DNA of 64,000 nucleotides from a virus (IMGVR_UViG_3300021255_000070:1-64000); one strand, 5' to 3'; shown: positions 5,387 through 64,000, counted from the first letter of the stretch. Program-made: numbers and translations. Notes: generated by a model not told the origin, from the letters alone.

Positions 5387-6181
5387 TTAGAAATTGACTA
5401 CTTCTTTATTAGCTAGTTCTATACTAGCTTTGTGATAATCATTTCCCTGTGGATTAATAAAATACCCTACGTCATAAATACGACCTCTTTTGTCATACTT
5501 ATGAGTTAACCAGAATTTTTTATCAGAGAACCATAGAGAAGTATTCCTACTATGCTCTGTAAACTTACTCCAGTTCTTCTCTGATATTTCCTGATACTCT
5601 TCACTTTTTGGATCATAGGTATTTAATTCATTAGCTAGTACAGCTATCTTGGAATTAATACCTAGAGCTACAGAGTTAGCTCTGTTCAGATGCTGAAGAT
5701 TGATATCATATTTTGGTGTTTTACTATTTAATACAAGAGAACCAGTATCAGCTATCAGATACCCATTCTGGTTATTCTTTTCCAGTCTCCTTGGTTCACA
5801 AACCAAAGGAAGAGGAAACTGAAAAGTATCCAGTTCATCCTGTGTTTTCTGGTCTACATTGAATTTAACTATCAGTTGTTCTTTGTCTGTATCAATGAAG
5901 CATAAACCTGCATTGACACATTTAACTACCTCATTTGCAGTAAACTGACTATCTTTATAGATATAGAACAGAGTACCTATAGTAGTAGGTATATCCATTC
6001 TCTTATGGATAATCAGGTTCACACAGAGCTGTTCAGCAATCATTACATCCAAGTCATGATTGAATATTAACTCTGCTATTTCCTGCTGGTTCTGAACCAA
6101 TCGAGTAAGTTTACTTACCAACTGGTTCCTGTTGAATTTAATCTCAAGTTCTTTTTGTAGGTTTTTCATAATATCCTCCAT
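5387..6181 (-). CDS. RNA polymerase II subunit 1 (N4 gp15-like)
   Basis: YDKRGRIY (DxxGR motif) and NPQGND; immediately upstream of subunit 2. Confidence 0.9.
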   Translation of the reverse strand: MEDIMKNLQKELEIKFNRNQLVSKLTRLVQNQQEIAELIFNHDLDVMIAEQLCVNLIIHKRMDIPTTIGTLFYIYKDSQFTANEVVKCVNAGLCFIDTDKEQLIVKFNVDQKTQDELDTFQFPLPLVCEPRRLEKNNQNGYLIADTGSLVLNSKTPKYDINLQHLNRANSVALGINSKIAVLANELNTYDPKSEEYQEISEKNWSKFTEHSRNTSLWFSDKKFWLTHKYDKRGRIYDVGYFINPQGNDYHKASIELANKEVVNF

Positions 6182-54764: not shown

Positions 54765-55493
54765 TTAACTCCTATAGTAGTTATTTAAGTGATCTAACAA
54801 GATTTGACAATCATTATCCATAAAGGTCTGACTCTTATTGAATAGACCCATAGGACTTCTGATTCTGGTATTAACAGTGTCTTTAGTTACACGAGTCTGG
54901 AAGACATATTTAAATCCTAAATCTTCCTCTTCTTCAGAAATATTTAATAAATCTGATTTATAGTCCTTTAGTTTAACTAAAGGCATTTTCTGAGAATAAA
55001 CAATAGTAGAGAAATATGCTTCAATACCTGTGCCTTTTAAAGCACCCTTTACAGGAACTGAGGTCTTAGTTTCAAGTGTCTTTTCATCATAAGTATCTGC
55101 AATATGAGCTATGAATATAACTGGTTTACCAAATTTAATAACTCTATCTTGTAAGATAGATTTAAAGAATTGATTATATTCACTCCATGCTTTCATGGTA
55201 TTGGTAGCTGTTAATACATATTGAGATTCATACATCTCCATTAAGAAGGTAAGTGAATCTACAATAATACCTTCACAGTTTGGGTCTTCAGCTCCATGAT
55301 CGAATGCTTCAAATATCTGCATTGGATCTTCTAATCTGAATTCCCTAAAATTAGACTTGAAAGGCAACTTCTTACCTGCTTCAGTATTAAGATAATACCA
55401 TTTTTCTTGGTTCCTGATATTTCTTAAACTAGCTGACTTACCTGAACCAGATAAGCCACCTATTAGAATGAGCTGATCATTAGTATCACTCAT
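54765..55493 (-). CDS. AAA-family ATPase (N4 gp44/Sak4-like)
   Basis: Walker A GLSGSGKS, Walker B IIVDS, RIRSPMGLF. Confidence 0.85.
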   Translation of the reverse strand: MSDTNDQLILIGGLSGSGKSASLRNIRNQEKWYYLNTEAGKKLPFKSNFREFRLEDPMQIFEAFDHGAEDPNCEGIIVDSLTFLMEMYESQYVLTATNTMKAWSEYNQFFKSILQDRVIKFGKPVIFIAHIADTYDEKTLETKTSVPVKGALKGTGIEAYFSTIVYSQKMPLVKLKDYKSDLLNISEEEEDLGFKYVFQTRVTKDTVNTRIRSPMGLFNKSQTFMDNDCQILLDHLNNYYRS

Positions 55494-57684
55494 TGGTTCT
55501 ATCTCCTATTTTCTTAGCTGCGGTTTTTAGACATGTATTAGCTAACTCCTCTTCTGGTAGAGGGTTAGGTAATCTTTTATTAAATCCCTTAACAAGTTTT
55601 TCAACATCTTCTAAAGATTTACCTGAGTCTACAAGAGCCATAGTATATCTAAGCATATAGTTATTTCTATTGCCTACATCCATCTTCTGGATGAACCATC
55701 TCTCTAAAGCACCTAGGTCTGCAAGTTTCTTGTCCTTGAACTGTTTATTATAAATATCATTACTTCTACTTCCCGGAATAAATGGAAGTACATTGAACAG
55801 TTTTCCCTGATGGTCAAGAACAATACCTTTAGGATTGGTTTCCCATTTATGAGAAATATCCTTAACCATCTCATCACAGGTAAAAGGTAAATAAGTAAGT
55901 ATATTAGACATAAATTGGCTAAATTCTTCCTTATTTAATTCTAATTCATGTGACATTGGAATTAAGATACGGTATCTATTCTGTTCAGTAGTATGACGCT
56001 TGGTTGTATAGATAATATAGGAATAATCCTCTAGGATATTCTGAGCCAAGGTAATAGGTGTACCGTCATCTATATCTAGAATAATAGTATTAAATCTACC
56101 TATTACATCTTCATTACATCTATGACCATTACCATTTACTTCGCAAGCAAAGTGATGATTACAGAAATGCAATGGTTCTCCTGCTTTATCAGGAGATTCC
56201 ATGGTTCCTAATCGTTTCAGATTATCCCAAGAGAGTTCATCGTTATAATAATTAAAAGCAAAGTCAGTACTGTAACTAATAATACTGCTATCACCTGAAC
56301 TGTTGTTTAACTGCTTACCACTTAAGAACTCAATATCATCATTATATCTGGATGTAATAAGAATATTATGATCTAGTCCCCAAGCTTTAGCTAAAGACAG
56401 CATATCTTTCTTATTAGAACTTCCCTTAAAGAAGGGTAATTCTTCTACAATTTCTGCATGAGTTACTTCATGAGTCTGTTCACTAATAAATTTAGCTAAC
56501 TTCATATGAGGTAGGTCTCTAGTAAGAATCTTAGTGAAAGCATTACCTGATTCTTCTACTAGCTTGATTGCTTGGTTCAAATGAGTTTCAGTAATATCTG
56601 GACTTACATCTACGAAAGCAAATGCACCTGCTAGTTTAAGAGCTTTAAAATATCTATTAGATACTTCAGTTTTCTGCAATAGCTGAGATGCTTTAAACTT
56701 CTCTGCTTTCTCTTCACATTCCATCTTATATTCCTGTAACTTAATACCTATATCATCAGGTAGATTTACAGAATAGTTATACATATTCTGGTCTGCAAGA
56801 GAAGCAAAGTGTGATGACCATTTAGCAGCTATAGCATCATTCTGAGGGTCACATAAATCATCATAGATTTCTTTAGGAGTTCTATTCTGATAATTGATAG
56901 AAGATGTATTCTTACCCATACAGAATAGAGTTCTTCTAGCATATCCTGTTCTTAGATAAGCATAGAAGTTATCTTCTATGGTTCCACCATCTAGCAGAGC
57001 ATATGGCTCTCCAAATAACAGCATATTAGCTGGAGTAGAACCATCCAAGTCTTCACCTCTGGATGAACTGTCTGTATTCTTAGTTAATTTCTGCTTGGTA
57101 AAGCCTTTATCAAATAGTTCTAAGAACATATTTAAGGCTTCCCCTGAATCTGTAAGATTCATGCCAATCTCATCAATCTGTAGATTAATAGAACCAATGC
57201 CTGCCATTAACAGTTTCTGTCTCATTTGCTTAATAGCTGGTCCGGTAGCAGAATCAAAAGTAAATAAATAAGAACCAAGTTTATTATATTCTTGGGTTAT
57301 TAATTTAATTTCTTCTGCTTGACTGGTATGATTATTAACAGATCTAGTAGTAGCCATATCTGCAAGATGCTTTTGTGCAAATGCCGGCATAGTATCCTGT
57401 AGAAAAGCTACTCGGAAGTCTCTGATAATATTCTCTTCCATAAAATTAACACTAAAATTCTTACCATAACCTGAAGGAGCCAAGGCTAATACATAAGTAT
57501 TAATTGGTATGGTTCCTAAGTGTTTGGTAACAATATTAGCTCGCATACAGGCTGCCATCTTGCCGATATAATAGGTAACGATGGTTCTGAAGAAAGCCTT
57601 ATCTGTACTCTGTTTCTTTTTACAGAGTACATCAGTTATTTCTTCAATAGGCTGAAAATGCTGAACTGTACTTAAATCAATCAT
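55486..57684 (-). CDS. DNA primase (N4 gp43-like; NTPase plus AEP/PriCT)
   Basis: LAPSGYGKN, IDEIG; ILDIDDG, YTTKRH and GNRNN..LRY C-terminal primase motifs. Confidence 0.85.
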   Translation of the reverse strand: MIDLSTVQHFQPIEEITDVLCKKKQSTDKAFFRTIVTYYIGKMAACMRANIVTKHLGTIPINTYVLALAPSGYGKNFSVNFMEENIIRDFRVAFLQDTMPAFAQKHLADMATTRSVNNHTSQAEEIKLITQEYNKLGSYLFTFDSATGPAIKQMRQKLLMAGIGSINLQIDEIGMNLTDSGEALNMFLELFDKGFTKQKLTKNTDSSSRGEDLDGSTPANMLLFGEPYALLDGGTIEDNFYAYLRTGYARRTLFCMGKNTSSINYQNRTPKEIYDDLCDPQNDAIAAKWSSHFASLADQNMYNYSVNLPDDIGIKLQEYKMECEEKAEKFKASQLLQKTEVSNRYFKALKLAGAFAFVDVSPDITETHLNQAIKLVEESGNAFTKILTRDLPHMKLAKFISEQTHEVTHAEIVEELPFFKGSSNKKDMLSLAKAWGLDHNILITSRYNDDIEFLSGKQLNNSSGDSSIISYSTDFAFNYYNDELSWDNLKRLGTMESPDKAGEPLHFCNHHFACEVNGNGHRCNEDVIGRFNTIILDIDDGTPITLAQNILEDYSYIIYTTKRHTTEQNRYRILIPMSHELELNKEEFSQFMSNILTYLPFTCDEMVKDISHKWETNPKGIVLDHQGKLFNVLPFIPGSRSNDIYNKQFKDKKLADLGALERWFIQKMDVGNRNNYMLRYTMALVDSGKSLEDVEKLVKGFNKRLPNPLPEEELANTCLKTAAKKIGDRTNE

Positions 57685-58633
57685 TAAAGTATTGTCTCCT
57701 TTGCTGACATATAGGTGCAGCAGGGCATAGCTTACATCTCTTTACTTCACCCTTTACTTCTCTAACTACACCTTTACCTTTCTCTAAACAAAACTTATTA
57801 GCTTCTGCTAATGAGTCAAAGTTCTTTGTAGCTTTAGAAGCAGTAGGATTTGCATAGTATTTATACTTAGTATCACTACGCCATAATTCTTCATCAGTAC
57901 ACTCAGGAATGTCTTCTTCTTTAGCATCCCAGTACTTAGTAATAAGAGCTAGTTTCTCTTTAATCCATTTTTCTGTTTCAGGAATAGATAATAGAGGGTA
58001 ATCCTTATACATAATCTTATGCTGAGGATAATCTTTATTAGTTAGAGCCAAGGCATTCTGCCAATCTGTAAAGATAAAACAGATACGTACAAAGTCAGAG
58101 GTTACTTTGTCTTGGTTCAACCATCTATAAATACTTCCCTGTAATCTATACTTTTCATCCATACCACCATATACCCATGTATATGCTGAAGTAGATTTAA
58201 AGTCATGTAGAATACCATCACCTATATAATCAAACTTACCACCTATCTTGTAACCATCTATTTCTTTAATAGAACGCTGTTCAATATAGACAGGTATCTG
58301 ACCATCTTCTACCTTTTCAGGATTGATAACTATTTTATCGGCTACAGATTTATTAAAGCCTAGAAACTCAAGAGTCTTTCTGTAATCACTATAGAGCCAA
58401 GCCTTCTCAATACCATCATGGATACTGGTTCCCATAACAGCAGGTACAAAGCTGGATATGTCAGTAGTAATGAAATTATCATTTACTCTTGGTCTTAAGA
58501 TAAGTTGTTTGAGGGGATTAAGTAACTGAGTAGCTGAGATATACTTCTCATCTTGAATATGGTCATATTCATCATGAGCTAGCCATACTTGTAATGGTAA
58601 AGGTATATCCCACTCATTTGTTAAGTTCATCAA
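57677..58633 (-). CDS. PD-(D/E)xK nuclease (N4 gp42-like)
   Basis: ISATQLL, GTSIHDGIE, GKFD...HDFKSTS, QGSIYRW, C-terminal CKLC...CQQ. Confidence 0.85.
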   Translation of the reverse strand: MMNLTNEWDIPLPLQVWLAHDEYDHIQDEKYISATQLLNPLKQLILRPRVNDNFITTDISSFVPAVMGTSIHDGIEKAWLYSDYRKTLEFLGFNKSVADKIVINPEKVEDGQIPVYIEQRSIKEIDGYKIGGKFDYIGDGILHDFKSTSAYTWVYGGMDEKYRLQGSIYRWLNQDKVTSDFVRICFIFTDWQNALALTNKDYPQHKIMYKDYPLLSIPETEKWIKEKLALITKYWDAKEEDIPECTDEELWRSDTKYKYYANPTASKATKNFDSLAEANKFCLEKGKGVVREVKGEVKRCKLCPAAPICQQRRQYFND

Positions 58634-59336
58634 TATACTCCTTAACTAGATTGATTAGTTCTGGTTCTGTAAGATTATTTGGAAGAGATAATTCATGTGC
58701 CCAATCTGGGTAGAAGATAGATAATTCACCTCCTAAGTGAACGTCTGGATGTCTGATTTCTGGTTCATCCTGCCAAGATACTGCTTTATTTAGCTCTGTA
58801 TTGACCCATAGAACCACTTCAGGGATATCTCTGATAATAAAGTACTGAGCATCATGAATTTGTGCTACAGGTTTAATATATTCACGGTATGGACTATTCT
58901 CTACTTTAGTCATAAATTCAATACCTGCTCTGGTATTTAATAATCCATAGGATTGACCCAGAGCATTACCAGCAGTTCTTCTTTCTGCTTCAGCTTCATG
59001 AGGAGTCTTACTGGTTCCCATAATAGCCTGTTTCATCTTATGGGTTCTGACTCTTAAACCAAAAGCTACATCTACATAACCATTCTTTTCAGCAGATTCT
59101 AGTCTTTTATTAACCCATTCATCTGATTCTTTATAGAGTTCATGATAAGCATTGTAGATTTGTTCTGCTTCTTTCTGAGAGAAGCCTTGGTTCTTAACTA
59201 AGGTAGAAGGAGTTCCTCCATAAGTAAGAGCAAAGGTACAGGTTTTAGACTTCTGTCTTAAATCCTTATGCTTATTTTTGATAGAGTTAATAATTTCTAC
59301 TTCTGCTTCCTGTTTAGAGATTTCCTCTATCTTCAT
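58614..59336 (-). CDS. DNA polymerase family A, C-terminal fragment (motifs B and C)
   Basis: RQKSKTCTFALTYGG (motif B), RTAGNALGQSYGLLN, AQIHDAQYF (motif C); own AGGAG RBS. Confidence 0.92.
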   Translation of the reverse strand: MKIEEISKQEAEVEIINSIKNKHKDLRQKSKTCTFALTYGGTPSTLVKNQGFSQKEAEQIYNAYHELYKESDEWVNKRLESAEKNGYVDVAFGLRVRTHKMKQAIMGTSKTPHEAEAERRTAGNALGQSYGLLNTRAGIEFMTKVENSPYREYIKPVAQIHDAQYFIIRDIPEVVLWVNTELNKAVSWQDEPEIRHPDVHLGGELSIFYPDWAHELSLPNNLTEPELINLVKEYIDELNK

Positions 59337-59347
59337 AGAAGCTCCTA

Positions 59348-59521
59348 TTAAGATTCTAATTCTTTAAGGTATTTTTCTTTTAATTCTGGTTCCAGATAGG
59401 ATAAACAGGTATCCATGATATCTTTCAAAAGATAATACATATCTTTGTAATCTCTATTAGTTTCATAATAATCAAGAAGTTCAATAGCTAAATCTCTTGC
59501 TGTTGCTGGTCTTTCATCCAT
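59348..59521 (-). CDS. Hypothetical protein (57 aa) between polymerase halves
   Basis: Not in track; MDERPATARDLAIELLDYY...KELES, AGGAG RBS. Confidence 0.7.
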   Translation of the reverse strand: MDERPATARDLAIELLDYYETNRDYKDMYYLLKDIMDTCLSYLEPELKEKYLKELES

Positions 59522-59535
59522 AGTTTATCTCCTAA

Positions 59536-59576
59536 GAAAAAAGCCTATGTTTACTATGGTACATAGGCAAAAACTC
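59536..59576 (-). terminator. Intrinsic terminator inside the split-polymerase interval
   Basis: Minus strand GCCTATGT-ACCATAGTAA-ACATAGGC-TTTTTT. Confidence 0.7.
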
Positions 59577-59578
59577 AG

Positions 59579-59986
59579 TTAGTTACTCGGAAAGATATAT
59601 TCCTGATGGTTTAATAGAAAATCATATAACCTATTATCAATATCATCTATAATGTCATCTTCAAAAAAAGTACTTGATTCATTAATACCTACAGAAATAG
59701 CCTTATTGATAATATCTATTTTGATAGAATTAGGAATTCTATCAATAGCTTTTGCAACTGTATCAATACAAGTAGTATCATCCATATCAGTAAGAGCTTC
59801 TACTTCATATTTTAAACTGTAGGATACTGGGTCAGCTCTCTCTGGAAGTTCATCTATATAATAGATTATTGGATATAAGCCGAAGTCTTGGTTCTCTATA
59901 TAAATATCTTTTGGATTTACTTTGAGTACTTCAGCTAATTTCTGCTTATCTATTTTTAGATTACTATCGTCTATTTTTATAAACAT
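59579..59986 (-). CDS. Acidic hypothetical protein
   Basis: 135-aa ORF, AGGAG RBS. Confidence 0.7.
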   Translation of the reverse strand: MFIKIDDSNLKIDKQKLAEVLKVNPKDIYIENQDFGLYPIIYYIDELPERADPVSYSLKYEVEALTDMDDTTCIDTVAKAIDRIPNSIKIDIINKAISVGINESSTFFEDDIIDDIDNRLYDFLLNHQEYIFPSN

Positions 59987-59994
59987 ATAAACTC

Positions 59995-60462
59995 CTAGAA
60001 TTTAACTTTTTTTAACAAGTTATCTAAAGTAGTTTTATTACCACCTAGTTCTAGTTCTAGGATAATATCATTAATAGTTTTATTAATCTTTTCATTTAAA
60101 TCATTAATTTGAGCCATAAGCTTATCTTCTTCTGCCTGCTTATAGTAAATAAATTTAAGGGATATACTTTCACATAAAGCTTCTGCTACTTTAGATGGAG
60201 TAATAAATAATCTATTAGGACCAGAGTAGTTATATTCAGTCCAGCATAAAGTTACTTCTGGATGTTTTTTAATAGCATTGCTTAAAGCATGTGTAAACAT
60301 TGAATTAGATAAATCTCTTATTTCTTTTTTAATATTAGTAAGATGTTCTGTCTGTTCTTTATGCAGTTTATCTAACTGTTCACATAAAGCCTGTTTCTTT
60401 GGTTCAGCTATTTCTTTAACACGAGTTTCAATAGCATTTTTAACAATTTGAGTTACTTTCAT
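59995..60462 (-). CDS. Coiled-coil hypothetical protein
   Basis: 155-aa ORF, AAGGAG RBS. Confidence 0.7.
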   Translation of the reverse strand: MKVTQIVKNAIETRVKEIAEPKKQALCEQLDKLHKEQTEHLTNIKKEIRDLSNSMFTHALSNAIKKHPEVTLCWTEYNYSGPNRLFITPSKVAEALCESISLKFIYYKQAEEDKLMAQINDLNEKINKTINDIILELELGGNKTTLDNLLKKVKF

Positions 60463-60475
60463 TATATGTCTCCTT

Positions 60476-60511
60476 AAAAAAGAGCCTAGTATAAAATCAT
60501 ACTAGGCTTAT
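60476..60511 (-). terminator. Intrinsic terminator inside the split-polymerase interval
   Basis: Minus strand AGCCTAGTAT-GATTTT-ATACTAGGCT-CTTTTT. Confidence 0.75.
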
Positions 60512-60587
60512 AACACTACAAAAAGGTATTAGTTGATTTATCTATTTTTAACAACTATCCTATTTTTAATATCTTCAAACAATAAAT

Positions 60588-61157
60588 CTAAATTAGAGTA
60601 ATATTCTCTTTAATATCTTCTAAGAATTTTTTGAGATTTAACTCATAATGCATATTTTCAAAACCTGTATCCCAATCTGCTTCATATGGTCTATTAGTTT
60701 TAGGATTAAAAGTATTACCTTTTTTAGGAATATAAGCTCTTAGATTATTCTTATCATCCAGATACATAATAAAGAATGTAGGATATTCATCATCTTCATT
60801 AGAATTACAAATAATAATAGGAAAACCATCTTTTACATATAAATACAGATTTTCCATTTGTTGATATCCATCATTTTCCTCATAAAATTCTTTTATATAT
60901 TCTTCTGGTTCTTGATTTCTTGAATCTTCCCAAGGATTTTCTTCAAAATCATTATAGCGAGTATTAAAGTCTTCCCATAAGCTACAACCTTCACTAAAAC
61001 CCATAGGAATATCTAAATCTTTCTCTACTATTTTAGGAAATACATCATAAAACATTTCACCAGCATCATCTTCTTCTGCTTTTAAATAATAATTTCTAAT
61101 AGTATTTACTAATTCATCCATAGTATGTTTAGTTGTAAATCTAGGAAATTTATTCAT
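60588..61157 (-). CDS. Hypothetical protein
   Basis: 189-aa acidic ORF with LRAYIPKKGNTFNP segment. Confidence 0.7.
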   Translation of the reverse strand: MNKFPRFTTKHTMDELVNTIRNYYLKAEEDDAGEMFYDVFPKIVEKDLDIPMGFSEGCSLWEDFNTRYNDFEENPWEDSRNQEPEEYIKEFYEENDGYQQMENLYLYVKDGFPIIICNSNEDDEYPTFFIMYLDDKNNLRAYIPKKGNTFNPKTNRPYEADWDTGFENMHYELNLKKFLEDIKENITLI

Positions 61158-61158
61158 T

Positions 61159-61557
61159 TTATTCTTCCTTTACCTTTTCAAGGTATTTAAAACTCTTTTC
61201 AATAGGATATCTTAATGGTGGATATTCAAAGCCTTTAGAATAAGGCATACCTATTTCTAAAGTAACTTTTGTACCATCATTTTTAATTACCATAATTTGA
61301 TATTTAGATAATTGTTCAAAAAGTTTATAAATACATAACATCCTTTCATAGCAAACATTTAAATATTCAAATTCATAAGTCATATTGAATAAGTAATATT
61401 CTTTATTATCTGTATATATGTAAGTTTCCTGAGTTAGTAATCCATCATCTGCAACTGATTTAAATGCATATTTATAAGCACTTCTGTTAGCTTTACCTTT
61501 ATGAATTACTTCTTTGAACTCATCTTTAGGAACCAACATATAAATTTTACAGTTCAT
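61159..61557 (-). CDS. Hypothetical protein
   Basis: 132 aa; its RBS and ATG lie inside the last codons of the polymerase N-fragment. Confidence 0.7.
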   Translation of the reverse strand: MNCKIYMLVPKDEFKEVIHKGKANRSAYKYAFKSVADDGLLTQETYIYTDNKEYYLFNMTYEFEYLNVCYERMLCIYKLFEQLSKYQIMVIKNDGTKVTLEIGMPYSKGFEYPPLRYPIEKSFKYLEKVKEE

Positions 61558-63478
61558 TCTGATACTCCTTTAATTTAGGATTATTTTCATTCAGGTATTC
61601 TATGGTTCCATCATCATGAGTAACTTTATAGACCTTACCTTCTTTCTTAATCTCTTCTAACTGTTCTGTAATATCTGGCATCTGGTCTTTGAAATAAGAA
61701 TAACTTCGTAAGCAATGACCATCATAATGCTCCAGATATACCTTTAATTTATTTTTATCTTTGGTTGTAAGAGCACTAATTCTATCTTCCAAAGATGCAA
61801 AGTCTTCACCAACAAAGAGCCAATCAGGAGGTGGACTAAAACATTTCTTAATAGTTTTAGCATATTTAGAACCAGTAGCTGGTAAGTTCTGTAAGTTAGG
61901 ACTATTACTGCTTAATCTACCTGATACAGTACCTCCTAGACGGAAATTACCACATAAATAGTACCATCCATCAGGAGCTTTATATGCTTTCTTAAAAGCA
62001 GGTATAAAAGCAGTAAGAATCTTATTTACATCTGAAAAATCAATAAGAGCATCTATTAAGTCTAATACAGCCTGATAGGTAGTCTTATTCTTAAGAGCTT
62101 TAAGAGTATCAGCACTTGTACTTGGTTCACCTGAATCAGTTTTAAATATCACAGGAAAAGCTAACATATCATAGAATAGCTCTTTCAACTGAAGATTAGA
62201 ATTAGGATTAAATTCTTCATGTGCATCAGCTATAGTTACTCTCTTTTTCTTTAGAGTCTTATTCTTTCTCTGTACCCATTGCTGGTTCAAATAGTTAGTA
62301 AATTTAACTACAATGTGATTAGACATTATTCTCTGTAGAGCATCTGCCTTATCCTGTTCTAACTGTTTTTCTGTTTCTAAGACTTTATCCATATCTAATG
62401 GAAGACCATTTAGCTGCATTTGAATAATGCCTTTAATAGCTGGTTTAAATAGAGTCTCATAGATAACTTTCTGGTTATCATCTATCATCTTCTGATAATG
62501 TTTATGATATACATACCAAGTAGCTAAACCATCTATAAGGTTATATTTCAGTAAATCAGCAGTAGGTATTTTAGATACATCACCTATTTCATCCTGTGCC
62601 CAGTTACCTGCAAATTCCTGAGCCTGTTCCTTAAGAGATAAGCTATTACCACTAGCACTATTAGTAGCTAGATAAGTAATCAGCATAGTGTCATCAAAGT
62701 CTCTTAATAAAGTATTTAGACCTTCATACATACCTTTAATATCTAGGAAATCTTTCATAAATAACTGATAGGTAAGTACGTATACATCAAAGGATATATT
62801 ATGAAATATCAGAGTACCTTTATAGTTTTTAAAGAACCAAGTAAGTTCCTGTCTTACTGCCGTATTCTGTATTTCTTGGCTCGTATCTACTTTAAAGGCT
62901 ATACCCTTATGCATACTCCAACAGAAAGTAATAGAAGCTATACCTGCATCATAGTGCTTTAAGGAATAAGTCTCTATATCACAGGTAAGCTTTGGATAAC
63001 TTAGAAGAGTATCAAGATATTTATGAATTTCAGTAGGAGTAGATGGATAATAAGCTTCATCTATAATTTCAGTACCGGGTTCCTTATAAGTATTCCCGGC
63101 ATGAGCTAATACAGCTTCTAGTGATTGCTTAATCTTATCTCTGGTTTCATCTGGTTTATAGAAAATACCATCTACAGAAGGAGTATAGGTAATAAAGAAG
63201 TTTTTAAGAGGAAAGATATAACCAACCAAGGTATTAGGCTTGCATGGTCCATGTAATGCTTTGAACCATTCAGCATCACAGATAATCAGATATTTACTGT
63301 CACTGAAGTTATCCTGATTATTATCAAACCAGTCTCTCATTTCTTTGACAGATGGTTTCTTCTTACCTAATGGATTCCATAAGGTAATAGTTCTACATTC
63401 TTCAGGAGGTAAATATTTATGATATTCTGTTGCTATACGGCTTGGTTGGTTCTTATTAACAAAGATAGTGTATTTCAT
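61547..63478 (-). CDS. DNA polymerase family A, N-terminal fragment (3'-5' exonuclease to motif A)
   Basis: Exo I CDIET, Exo II FHNISFDV, Exo III YNLID, GTVSGRLSS..PNLQNLP, motif A EDFASLEDRI, DGHCLRSY; no motif B or C. Confidence 0.93.
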   Translation of the reverse strand: MKYTIFVNKNQPSRIATEYHKYLPPEECRTITLWNPLGKKKPSVKEMRDWFDNNQDNFSDSKYLIICDAEWFKALHGPCKPNTLVGYIFPLKNFFITYTPSVDGIFYKPDETRDKIKQSLEAVLAHAGNTYKEPGTEIIDEAYYPSTPTEIHKYLDTLLSYPKLTCDIETYSLKHYDAGIASITFCWSMHKGIAFKVDTSQEIQNTAVRQELTWFFKNYKGTLIFHNISFDVYVLTYQLFMKDFLDIKGMYEGLNTLLRDFDDTMLITYLATNSASGNSLSLKEQAQEFAGNWAQDEIGDVSKIPTADLLKYNLIDGLATWYVYHKHYQKMIDDNQKVIYETLFKPAIKGIIQMQLNGLPLDMDKVLETEKQLEQDKADALQRIMSNHIVVKFTNYLNQQWVQRKNKTLKKKRVTIADAHEEFNPNSNLQLKELFYDMLAFPVIFKTDSGEPSTSADTLKALKNKTTYQAVLDLIDALIDFSDVNKILTAFIPAFKKAYKAPDGWYYLCGNFRLGGTVSGRLSSNSPNLQNLPATGSKYAKTIKKCFSPPPDWLFVGEDFASLEDRISALTTKDKNKLKVYLEHYDGHCLRSYSYFKDQMPDITEQLEEIKKEGKVYKVTHDDGTIEYLNENNPKLKEYQNEL

Positions 63479-63984
63479 ACTAATAACTCATATGCTTCAT
63501 ACTGATTAATACGAGGAATTATAATTTCTTCATAAAACTTTTTTAAGTTATCTTTTATTTCTGGTTCAGATTCTCTTACCCACTGAGGTACTATCTTTTT
63601 GATAAAAGAATCAAAGATACTAGGCAGATTATTGAACATCTCTCCATTATCTTTTGAACCAAAGCATTGGGAAGCAATGAAGGTAGTAATAAACTTTCTA
63701 TCCTGTTCAATGGTTTCTTTGGTTTTCTTGTACTGTTCTAGTTTATCTACAAGGGCTAAATTTAAAGTACAAAGATTGTTCTTATCATGACTGAAGTTAA
63801 GAGAAGGATTGAAATAGCAATAACCTCTAAATTTAAATCCATAAGAGACTACTGTCTGTTCATTATTCAATTCAGAATTCTGTTTGATTAATTTAGTAAG
63901 ATAAGTATTTAGATATTTCTTAGGATTCTTAAAGATGCTATCAATCAATTCTTCTCTAGTATCATAGATTGAATATTTACTCAT
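63475..63984 (-). CDS. N4 gp38-like hypothetical protein
   Basis: Position directly upstream of the polymerase with ATGA overlap; no catalytic motif recognised. Confidence 0.6.
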   Translation of the reverse strand: MSKYSIYDTREELIDSIFKNPKKYLNTYLTKLIKQNSELNNEQTVVSYGFKFRGYCYFNPSLNFSHDKNNLCTLNLALVDKLEQYKKTKETIEQDRKFITTFIASQCFGSKDNGEMFNNLPSIFDSFIKKIVPQWVRESEPEIKDNLKKFYEEIIIPRINQYEAYELLV

Positions 63985-64000
63985 AAAATACTCCCAAATT

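Follow-up and report, generated by a model that had tools for sequence, protein, structure and literature searches.

A replicative DNA polymerase of N4-like phages probably made as two polypeptides, with the break in the fingers and a variable set of genes between the halves

Family A DNA polymerases (PolA) are workhorses of molecular biology, in which closing of the fingers, with their helices N and O, selects the incoming nucleotide. Here we describe the polymerase gene of a viral genome whose first 64,000 nucleotides (nt) were analysed (IMGVR_UViG_3300021255_000070:1-64000, hereafter the window). This gene is present as two separate open reading frames (ORFs), an N-part and a C-part, with five other ORFs, i1 to i5, between them. 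It is probably an old, stable and functional gene in pieces, by which a single replicative polymerase of the type of gp39 from phage N4 is made as two polypeptides. The two chains most likely work as a heterodimer, with the enzyme assembled in trans.

The arrangement that we propose is as follows. A mobile element would have landed in the fingers loop and led to the cut. This fingertip cut, between helix N (..YDGHCLRSYSYF..MPDI) and helix O, would split the chain in two: the exonuclease, the thumb and motif A, with half the fingers, would come from the N-part, and motifs B and C from the C-part. With the motifs divided over both chains, the halves would therefore have to co-fold into one active site. 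A tail at the end of the N-part and a head at the start of the C-part would dock the halves onto each other. The intergenic gap would have become a hypervariable cargo slot, usually occupied by a single i3-family gene whose translation is coupled to that of the C-part, and in the present phage four ORFans and two hairpin/T-run elements would have been added around i3.

The source record is a 73,746-bp viral genome with direct terminal repeats (DTR), judged complete, and both its replication genes and its best protein matches identify it as an N4-like phage of the Schitoviridae. The best phage matches of both polymerase pieces are all Schitoviridae proteins of the gp39 type (N4 and kin; 48-61% identity). 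The Pfam family DNA_pol_A is matched by the N-part over positions 11-211 of 381 (100.3 bits; cut-off 34.3) and by the C-part over positions 198-339 of 381 (57.9 bits; cut-off 34.3), and the profile is thus tiled by the two pieces with a 14-position overlap. The N-part also carries the 3′-5′ exonuclease domain DNA_pol_A_exo1 (PF01612; residues 146-326; 29.7 bits, cut-off 23.6). Pfam coverage of the core, motifs A, B and C, the exonuclease domain and an N4-type syntenic context all place the enzyme among the N4-like members of family A. In the whole 73,746-bp genome these two are the only DNA_pol_A matches and Pfam detected no other PolA or PolB; an intact polymerase gene elsewhere, a possibility that an original prediction made from the sequence had raised against itself, was therefore not found in this complete genome.

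The N-part aligns with residues 51-632 of N4 gp39 (end ..MMPDI) and residue 10 of the C-part corresponds to N4 residue 633 (EDTVESVNSI..). Identity is 51% between the N-part and N4 residues 51-652 and 61% between the C-part and residues 633-851. The cut lies exactly between MPDI and INSI, that is, between motif A (D559..E564) and motif B (R27, K31, F35, Y39). Following the standard layout of Pol I motifs, we take the cut loop to be that between fingers helix N (DIHT-like YDGHCLRSYSYF) and helix O (motif B), so that one chain has motif A and the other has motifs B and C. The catalytic motifs are well conserved: 17 homologues all share D559, L563 and E564 and nearly all have D565, a residue that does not vary in a 6-sequence alignment, R27, K31, F35 and Y39 are invariant in 38 stand-alone C-parts, and stand-alone C-parts also have invariant H161 and D162 in motif C. 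At the junctions, the last codons of the N-part contain the AAGGAG and ATG of the next gene, i1, and the C-part has its own Shine-Dalgarno sequence (SD), TAGGAG, 6 nt before its ATG. Much of the original prediction was recovered in this way: the layout of 643 and 240 amino acids (aa) with five ORFs between them by ORF calling, the position of the break by alignment with N4 gp39, and the junction signals by the sequence itself. Its picture of a two-subunit enzyme is supported as far as a polymerase encoded by two genes is concerned, by conservation, selection and the lack of another polymerase. Its description of the gene as split by five unrelated genes is misleading: the five ORFs are present, but the split is older and many relatives have a single gene of the i3 family in the gap.

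A survey of relatives, which the same prediction had proposed, showed the same cut to be widespread. Among 16 IMG/VR loci (relatives are given here as L numbers), the break falls at exactly the same place in nine. The gene is whole in five (L010, L014, L016-L018), that of L015 is interrupted, but not at this loop, and in L019 the break is again in this loop and the gap contains an HNH gene. The best 120 matches of the N-part are all 528-667 aa long and none has the size of the intact enzyme (about 860 aa). In a search restricted to proteins of C-part size, stand-alone C-parts form more than 100 clusters at 90% identity; they are 236-250 aa long, cover the query end to end, and many lie on 65-75-kb contigs. 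One N-part match is the DNA polymerase (UniRef/nr) of Podoviridae sp. ctIKM86, a virus from a human metagenome. A search for fused polymerases that carry the tail (query region 596-643) had 10 candidates and gave 6 proteins, all the size of the N-part; it is too insensitive to exclude fusions. Megablast of the polymerase region against cultured phages gave no match. Taken together, the sequence comparisons indicate that the split is old, is common to many relatives and was not caused by the five gap genes.

The record is a metagenomic contig, and a chimeric assembly or collapsed variants could in principle have created such an arrangement. The chance of such an artefact, the misassembly of which the original prediction had warned, is close to negligible: over 9 kb (window 55000-64000) the sequence is matched at 100% identity by a 73,694-bp ENA scaffold, the same C-part occurs on three long contigs, in two of which the neighbouring genes were judged mostly the same, and the split junctions recur in many independent assemblies from different sources.

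Both halves appear as working genes under strong purifying selection, with ratios of nonsynonymous to synonymous substitution rates (dN/dS) of 0.086 for the N-part and 0.085 for the C-part. These were calculated against L020, our reference relative, which is 92-94% identical in DNA across the polymerase halves and their flanks. A decaying or broken polymerase, with replication left to host enzymes, or a defective contig, would also present an interrupted ORF, and the GC content of the gap is indeed lower than that of the halves. It is nevertheless highly improbable, given the low dN/dS of both halves, the invariant catalytic residues, the occurrence of the same architecture in the more than 100 clusters, including many genome-length contigs, and the completeness of the genome with its terminal repeats. 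An AlphaFold2 (AF2) model of the N-part alone is confident over residues 1-510 and has a predicted local distance difference test score (pLDDT) below 50 for residues 511-643, a region whose strand and helices would need the C-part to pack against. This would fit a piece unable to fold without its partner, and offers a slight hint of obligate co-folding.

Additional evidence comes from the two ends created by the cut. In intact relatives the junction reads ..MPDITAQLKECKTKEEEVKVINSIK... In the split forms it reads ..MPDIT.KLDEIHKEGKVYKVT.DDG..EYLNE.NPKL..stop, followed by MKIEEISK..AEVEVINSIK.., and a loop segment (.L.E..K) is found on both sides of the cut. Beyond this segment the N-part gains about 30 residues, predicted with low confidence to form a β-hairpin and a helix; the C-head is a predicted helix. 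The tail (24-residue consensus KEGKVYKVT.DDG..EYLNE.NPK; C-head MKIEEISK..) is absent from intact relatives and from N4 and is present in all i3-bearing split forms and in L011. Ten pairwise comparisons among five deeply diverged split phages, with 64 codons on each side, including motifs A and B, as flanks, gave proportions of nonsynonymous differences (pN) of 0.05-0.14 for the 24-codon tail and 0.10-0.29 for the head, versus 0.17-0.39 for the flanks, and proportions of synonymous differences (pS) that were equally saturated in tail (0.46-0.97) and flanks (0.63-0.93). Low pN with saturated pS therefore reflects purifying selection on the peptide and not recent transfer, and this selection is stronger on the two extensions than on the catalytic regions next to them. 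The tail and head are most likely a docking element that holds the two chains together. Following a weak HMMER alignment to Bst Pol I, the tail was also considered as a degenerate second motif B; this found no support, only the first ~10 tail residues resembling the C-head.

A split or degenerate intein could join the halves after translation, and part of the tail (..EGKVYKVT.DDG.IEYLNE..) does look by eye like the N-terminal β-hairpin block of Hint domains, a resemblance that finds no support in Pfam. Such an intein is scarcely credible. As the original prediction had noted, intein ends are lacking: the tail starts with Thr-Glu and not with Cys or Ser, there is no His-Asn before the body of the C-part, and the C-head amounts to only ~14 residues; moreover, the N-part, the C-part and the isolated tails gave no Pfam intein or Hint match even at E≤10. 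The polymerase with two separate chains remains the reading that we prefer, and the features on which it draws are collected in Table 1.

Table 1. Positions in the window of the two polymerase pieces, their motifs and the elements of the gap
Feature	Position	Strand	Remarks
N-part, 643 aa	61547..63478	(-)	N-terminal region, 3′-5′ exonuclease, thumb, motif A, fingers helix N, split-specific tail
Motif A, DFASLEDR, residues 559-566	61781..61804	(-)	aligns to N4 DFASLEDR
Split-specific C-terminal tail of N-part, residues 604-643	61550..61669	(-)	core KEGKVYKVTHDDGTIEYLNENNPK
i1, 132-aa ORFan	61159..61557	(-)	SD AAGGAG; start overlaps N-part stop; absent from L020
i2, 189-aa ORFan	60588..61157	(-)	SD AAGGAA; absent from L020
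Terminator-like hairpin (11-bp stem) and T-run between i2 and i3	60474..60508	(-)	consensus scan and sequence
i3, 155 aa, conserved gap resident	59995..60462	(-)	
i4, 135-aa ORFan	59579..59986	(-)	SD TAGGAG; absent from L020
Hairpin GCCTATGT..ACATAGGC and T6 between i4 and i5	59537..59568	(-)	
i5, 57-aa ORFan	59348..59521	(-)	SD TAGGAG
C-part, 240 aa	58614..59336	(-)	head MKIEEISKQEAEVE, helix O/motif B, remaining palm with motif C
Motif B, RQKSKTCTFALTYG, C-part residues 27-40	59217..59258	(-)	
Motif C, HDAQ, C-part residues 161-164	58845..58856	(-)	aligns to N4 IHDAQYF

The gap (59348-61557) is filled by five ORFs, each led by an SD, of 132, 189, 155, 135 and 57 aa. Searches of Pfam, PHROGs, PADLOC and NCBIfam gave nothing usable for any of them, scans of IMG/VR found no relatives of i1, i2 or i4, and ESM Atlas gave nothing usable for i1 or i2. 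Pfam likewise identified no endonuclease in the five ORFs, as had been predicted, and no HNH_3 domain in the whole 73,746-bp genome. The gap genes have a GC content of 0.25-0.28 and a GC content at third codon positions (GC3) of 0.13-0.19; the polymerase halves have GC of 0.33-0.36 and GC3 of 0.24-0.25, and GC3 is 0.24-0.26 in core genes. Compared to L020 there are three insertions: i1 and i2 with a hairpin/T-run (~1.09 kb), i4 (~0.4 kb) and i5 (~186 nt), the last sitting between a conserved hairpin and the ribosome-binding site of the C-part. This hairpin, between i4 and i5 in the present phage, lies directly upstream of the C-part in L020, and L020 has a different hairpin and T-run at the same relative place as that between i2 and i3. 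From this comparison, i1, i2, i4 and i5 are seen to be recent, strain-specific additions. A hairpin with a T-run hence flanks i3 on both sides, here and in L020 (L020:5365-5400, 5952-5990); such flanking elements are absent from relatives of the tightly overlapping L007 type.

The content of the gap varies among relatives, as does its length (0.4-2.2 kb). It consists of an i3 homologue alone in L004, L007-L009 and L020; i3 is preceded by ORFs of 80 and 56 aa in L031 and by a 95-aa ORF in L032; and the gap holds an unrelated 146-aa gene in L011, an unrelated 183-aa gene in L028 and a NUMOD4-HNH endonuclease gene in L019. These observations bear on whether the interruption could be removed at the RNA level, by a group I or group II intron or by trans-splicing, to give one chain. 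Some relatives do contain, at other sites of the gene, HNH inserts and ORF-less inserts of ~240-260 nt with a group-I-like GAUAUAGUCUGC element, and the split polymerase genes of phages JA-1 and MEP401 have been suggested to be intron-borne (PMC3670811, PMC10580990). Removal at the RNA level is however very unlikely for the present gap, which is full of SD-led ORFs of varying number and length between a conserved N-part stop and a conserved C-part SD and ATG. The ~40 and 14 codons beyond the homologous junction are under purifying selection at the protein level, unlike intron sequence. There is no group-I S-like element in the gap, nor any Rfam intron match at E≤1 in 59200-61700, a negative that is weak since Rfam also missed the inserts of L013.

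The one recurrent occupant of the gap is i3. Its homologues lie between the polymerase halves in L004-L009, L012, L013, L020 and L030-L032. At E≤1e-3, a profile search of 1.8 billion representatives gave 138 clusters, and no cluster is a fusion with a polymerase. With a single exception, a 1124-aa protein that matches over ~45 residues, these are small phage proteins of 37-201 aa that stand alone, full-length members having 120-160 aa. Family members share an N-terminal motif, M(R/K)VT..I(K/R)E(Y/A)I, and a C-terminal one, ..DII..LELG..K..L..(M/L)L. Comparison of 40 members with Pfam and PHROGs revealed no shared family, and tblastn of two i3 proteins against cultured phages gave no match. The AF2 model of i3 is a long helical hairpin with a small β-hairpin (pLDDT 96.5), and fold searches with it returned only generic helical-hairpin matches below the noise for helical proteins (Foldseek against PDB, E≥0.17; best VIA-wide Z 8.4). 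Vs.4/Acb2 was considered as a fold match and discarded, its rows being tied with unrelated proteins. The sole viral structural homologue is an uncharacterised BFVD entry, from Podoviridae sp. ctIKM86. In most relatives the N-part stop lies within an overlap with i3, and ..TAATG.. is common to i3 and the start of the C-part; translation of the three ORFs therefore looks coupled.

This position raises the question of whether the enzyme has three subunits, with i3 as an integral subunit or an assembly factor that bridges the cut fingers or adds, for example, processivity. Such a role would be in keeping with the close linkage of i3 to the C-part, which it immediately precedes with an ATGA-type overlap in most of the split relatives, with retention of the family across deep divergence, with its very confident fold, and with the ability of the split polymerase of phage PhiKZ to recruit an extra subunit (PMC13648687). 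We consider it unlikely. The i3 gene is a pseudogene in L006 (L006:7560-8001; a frameshift and a change of CAA to TAA) on a 72,964-bp contig whose polymerase halves are intact; it is replaced in L011 and L028 by the unrelated genes and in L019 by the HNH gene; and distant members occur in other phage neighbourhoods with no polymerase nearby. It also evolves fast (dN/dS 0.25-0.63; 67% nt identity to L020 where the flanks and polymerase halves have 92-94%), and in the present phage i4, i5 and a hairpin lie between i3 and the C-part. Because of the pseudogene, the distant members away from any polymerase and the fast evolution, we infer that i3 and the other gap genes are passengers and not polymerase subunits. 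A bolder proposal, to which we give only a small chance, is that the tail and C-head form a purpose-built clasp that turns the fingertip break into a stable heterodimer, and that the gap is a cargo slot riding on the expression of an essential enzyme. The slot genes, including the fast-evolving i3, would then perhaps be polymerase-associated or counter-defence factors, and in the strongest version of this proposal i3 would dock on the cut fingers as a third, exchangeable subunit.

How the cut arose can be approached through the relatives. Their polymerase genes are interrupted by HNH_3 genes (L005:238-795, L006:6583-7167, L015:5877-6437, L012:1200-2024, L019:2409-3008), some with NUMOD4 or I-HmuI-like NUMOD domains, at no fewer than four different sites. 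Such genes lie close to N-part residues 527-532, within motif A (563-566), after C-part residue 25, and in the present loop (L019). ORF-less inserts of ~260 and ~240 nt (L013:5714-5975 and L013:6093-6333; also in L012) are found at N-part residues 527/528 and 563-566. Those of L013 share ..AACGACUA.. and ..GAUAUAGUCUGCUCU.., typical of group I intron cores, and their folding surpasses that of shuffled sequences (z-scores of -2.5 and -3.1); they have no Rfam match, even at E≤1. Counting these two inserts, the i3 gap and an HNH insert that follows C-part residue 25, the L013 gene is in at least five pieces. In L019 a 5-nt duplication (ACGTA GCGTA; L019:3090-3125) shifts the C-part frame inside motif B (..FALT* / YAGTW..), and represents either a sequencing error or a dead gene copy. 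Because HNH genes and intron-like inserts pepper the same gene, and one HNH gene occupies this very loop in L019, insertion of a mobile element is probably the most economical origin of the cut.

A 19-taxon tree built from the polymerase body unites the split forms that bear i3 (support 84) and places L011, which is split, beside L010, which is intact (support 99). A single group of all split forms, a group that was named after seeing the tree, is rejected by the approximately unbiased (AU) test (p=0.003). On this tree at least two changes of split state are needed. Nucleotide similarity between L010 and L011 is lost exactly between MPDI and INSVKE, which fits either block replacement by recombination or re-fusion through the duplicated loop segment. 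In a more distant lineage (L028:2277-5750, equal to L029; NCBI GCA_029782595.1) the cut falls in the same loop; the N-tail (..YEVVINNESHFLTKDTLVKDEDGNTLTIEEYY..) and the C-head are different there, and the gap gene is the unrelated one of 183 aa. This lineage may have been split independently, as a second event, or may have diverged earlier.

Several points weigh against the functional two-chain enzyme as we have drawn it. A shallow alignment of 17 sequences could be enough to explain why the model has low confidence at N-part residues 511-643. If the two gap hairpins are efficient terminators, the halves would be on separate transcripts, and no promoter for the C-part was identified. The docking role of tail and head is read from selection on them, and the origin from a mobile element is circumstantial, since no endonuclease remains in this genome.

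The neighbourhood of the polymerase is that of N4, with a helicase, a gp38-like gene, a gp42-like exonuclease (phrog_2139) and a gp43-like primase; a gene of 4213 aa, the size of a virion RNA polymerase, is nearby. The C-part overlaps the exonuclease gene by 20 nt (window 58614-58633). A gp40-like ORF of about 95-111 aa, present between these two genes in relatives, is missing here and in L020.

These phages would provide a large natural group of enzymes that build the fingers subdomain from two chains, with a conserved extension at each cut end. They would offer a ready-made test of how far covalent continuity is needed in the fingers and a natural design for split or two-part polymerases, and illustrate how a fixed break in an essential gene may become a hot spot for the gain, swap and loss of small accessory genes. 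In practical terms, annotation pipelines and PolA marker surveys that expect one chain of ~860 aa will mis-score the clade, including Podoviridae sp. ctIKM86. Split polymerases as such are already published, including split polymerase genes in an uncultured cyanophage lineage (bioRxiv 10.1101/325100). Full-text literature searches found no description of this cut site, its spread in a large N4-like clade, a selected tail and head, or a variable gene slot.

The closest known system is N4 gp39, a member of cluster 17 in the PolA classification of Czernecki et al. 2023 (PMC10201439). It shares with the present enzyme the domain order, motifs A, B and C, a Phe at the selectivity position of motif B and the neighbouring genes, but is a single chain of 859 aa; here the chain is cut after the equivalent of N4 I632, and the new ends are extended by ~40 residues in the N-part and by ~9-14 in the C-part. 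The N4-like Vibrio phages JA-1 and VCO139 have a DNA polymerase split by an HNH homing endonuclease gene, and the study that described it suspected an intron (Fouts et al. 2013, PMC3670811). JA-1 belongs to the same phage family and has the same gene in two ORFs, but its cut lies inside motif A (..GLDFNSL | ..EDN..), an HNH gene occupies the gap, and no second half is defined by an SD and ATG. The JA-1 cut corresponds to an insert site in L005, L006, L012 and L013 and not to the site in the window. The OM43 phages MEP401 and MEP402 (Zobellviridae) carry PolA in two ORFs around a small ORF of unknown function (PMC10580990). In MEP401 an ORF with the exonuclease and the N-terminal polymerase part, the small ORF and an ORF with the C-terminal polymerase part are tightly packed, as here, but the phage belongs to another family, the cut falls before motif A (the C-part starts MILNADAKALEW) and there is no comparable tail; the 77-aa ORF in its gap was compared with i3 and is unrelated. 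That a replicative polymerase can work as two chains has been demonstrated by experiment in PhiKZ, in which DNAP-N and DNAP-C of a split PolB form a stable 1:1 complex (Basu et al. 2026 preprint, PMC13648687), and in Pfu polymerase, which tolerates a break at the finger tip, accidental or engineered, and is active (PMC3061061). These two enzymes belong to family B, the break in Pfu is man-made, and no cargo gap lies between the halves in either. Finally, T7-like PolAs show a natural split into exonuclease and polymerase genes, whose products have been proposed to interact in vivo (Czernecki et al. 2023, PMC10201439). There the cut separates two autonomous domains, whereas here it runs inside the polymerase domain and parts motif A from motif B.

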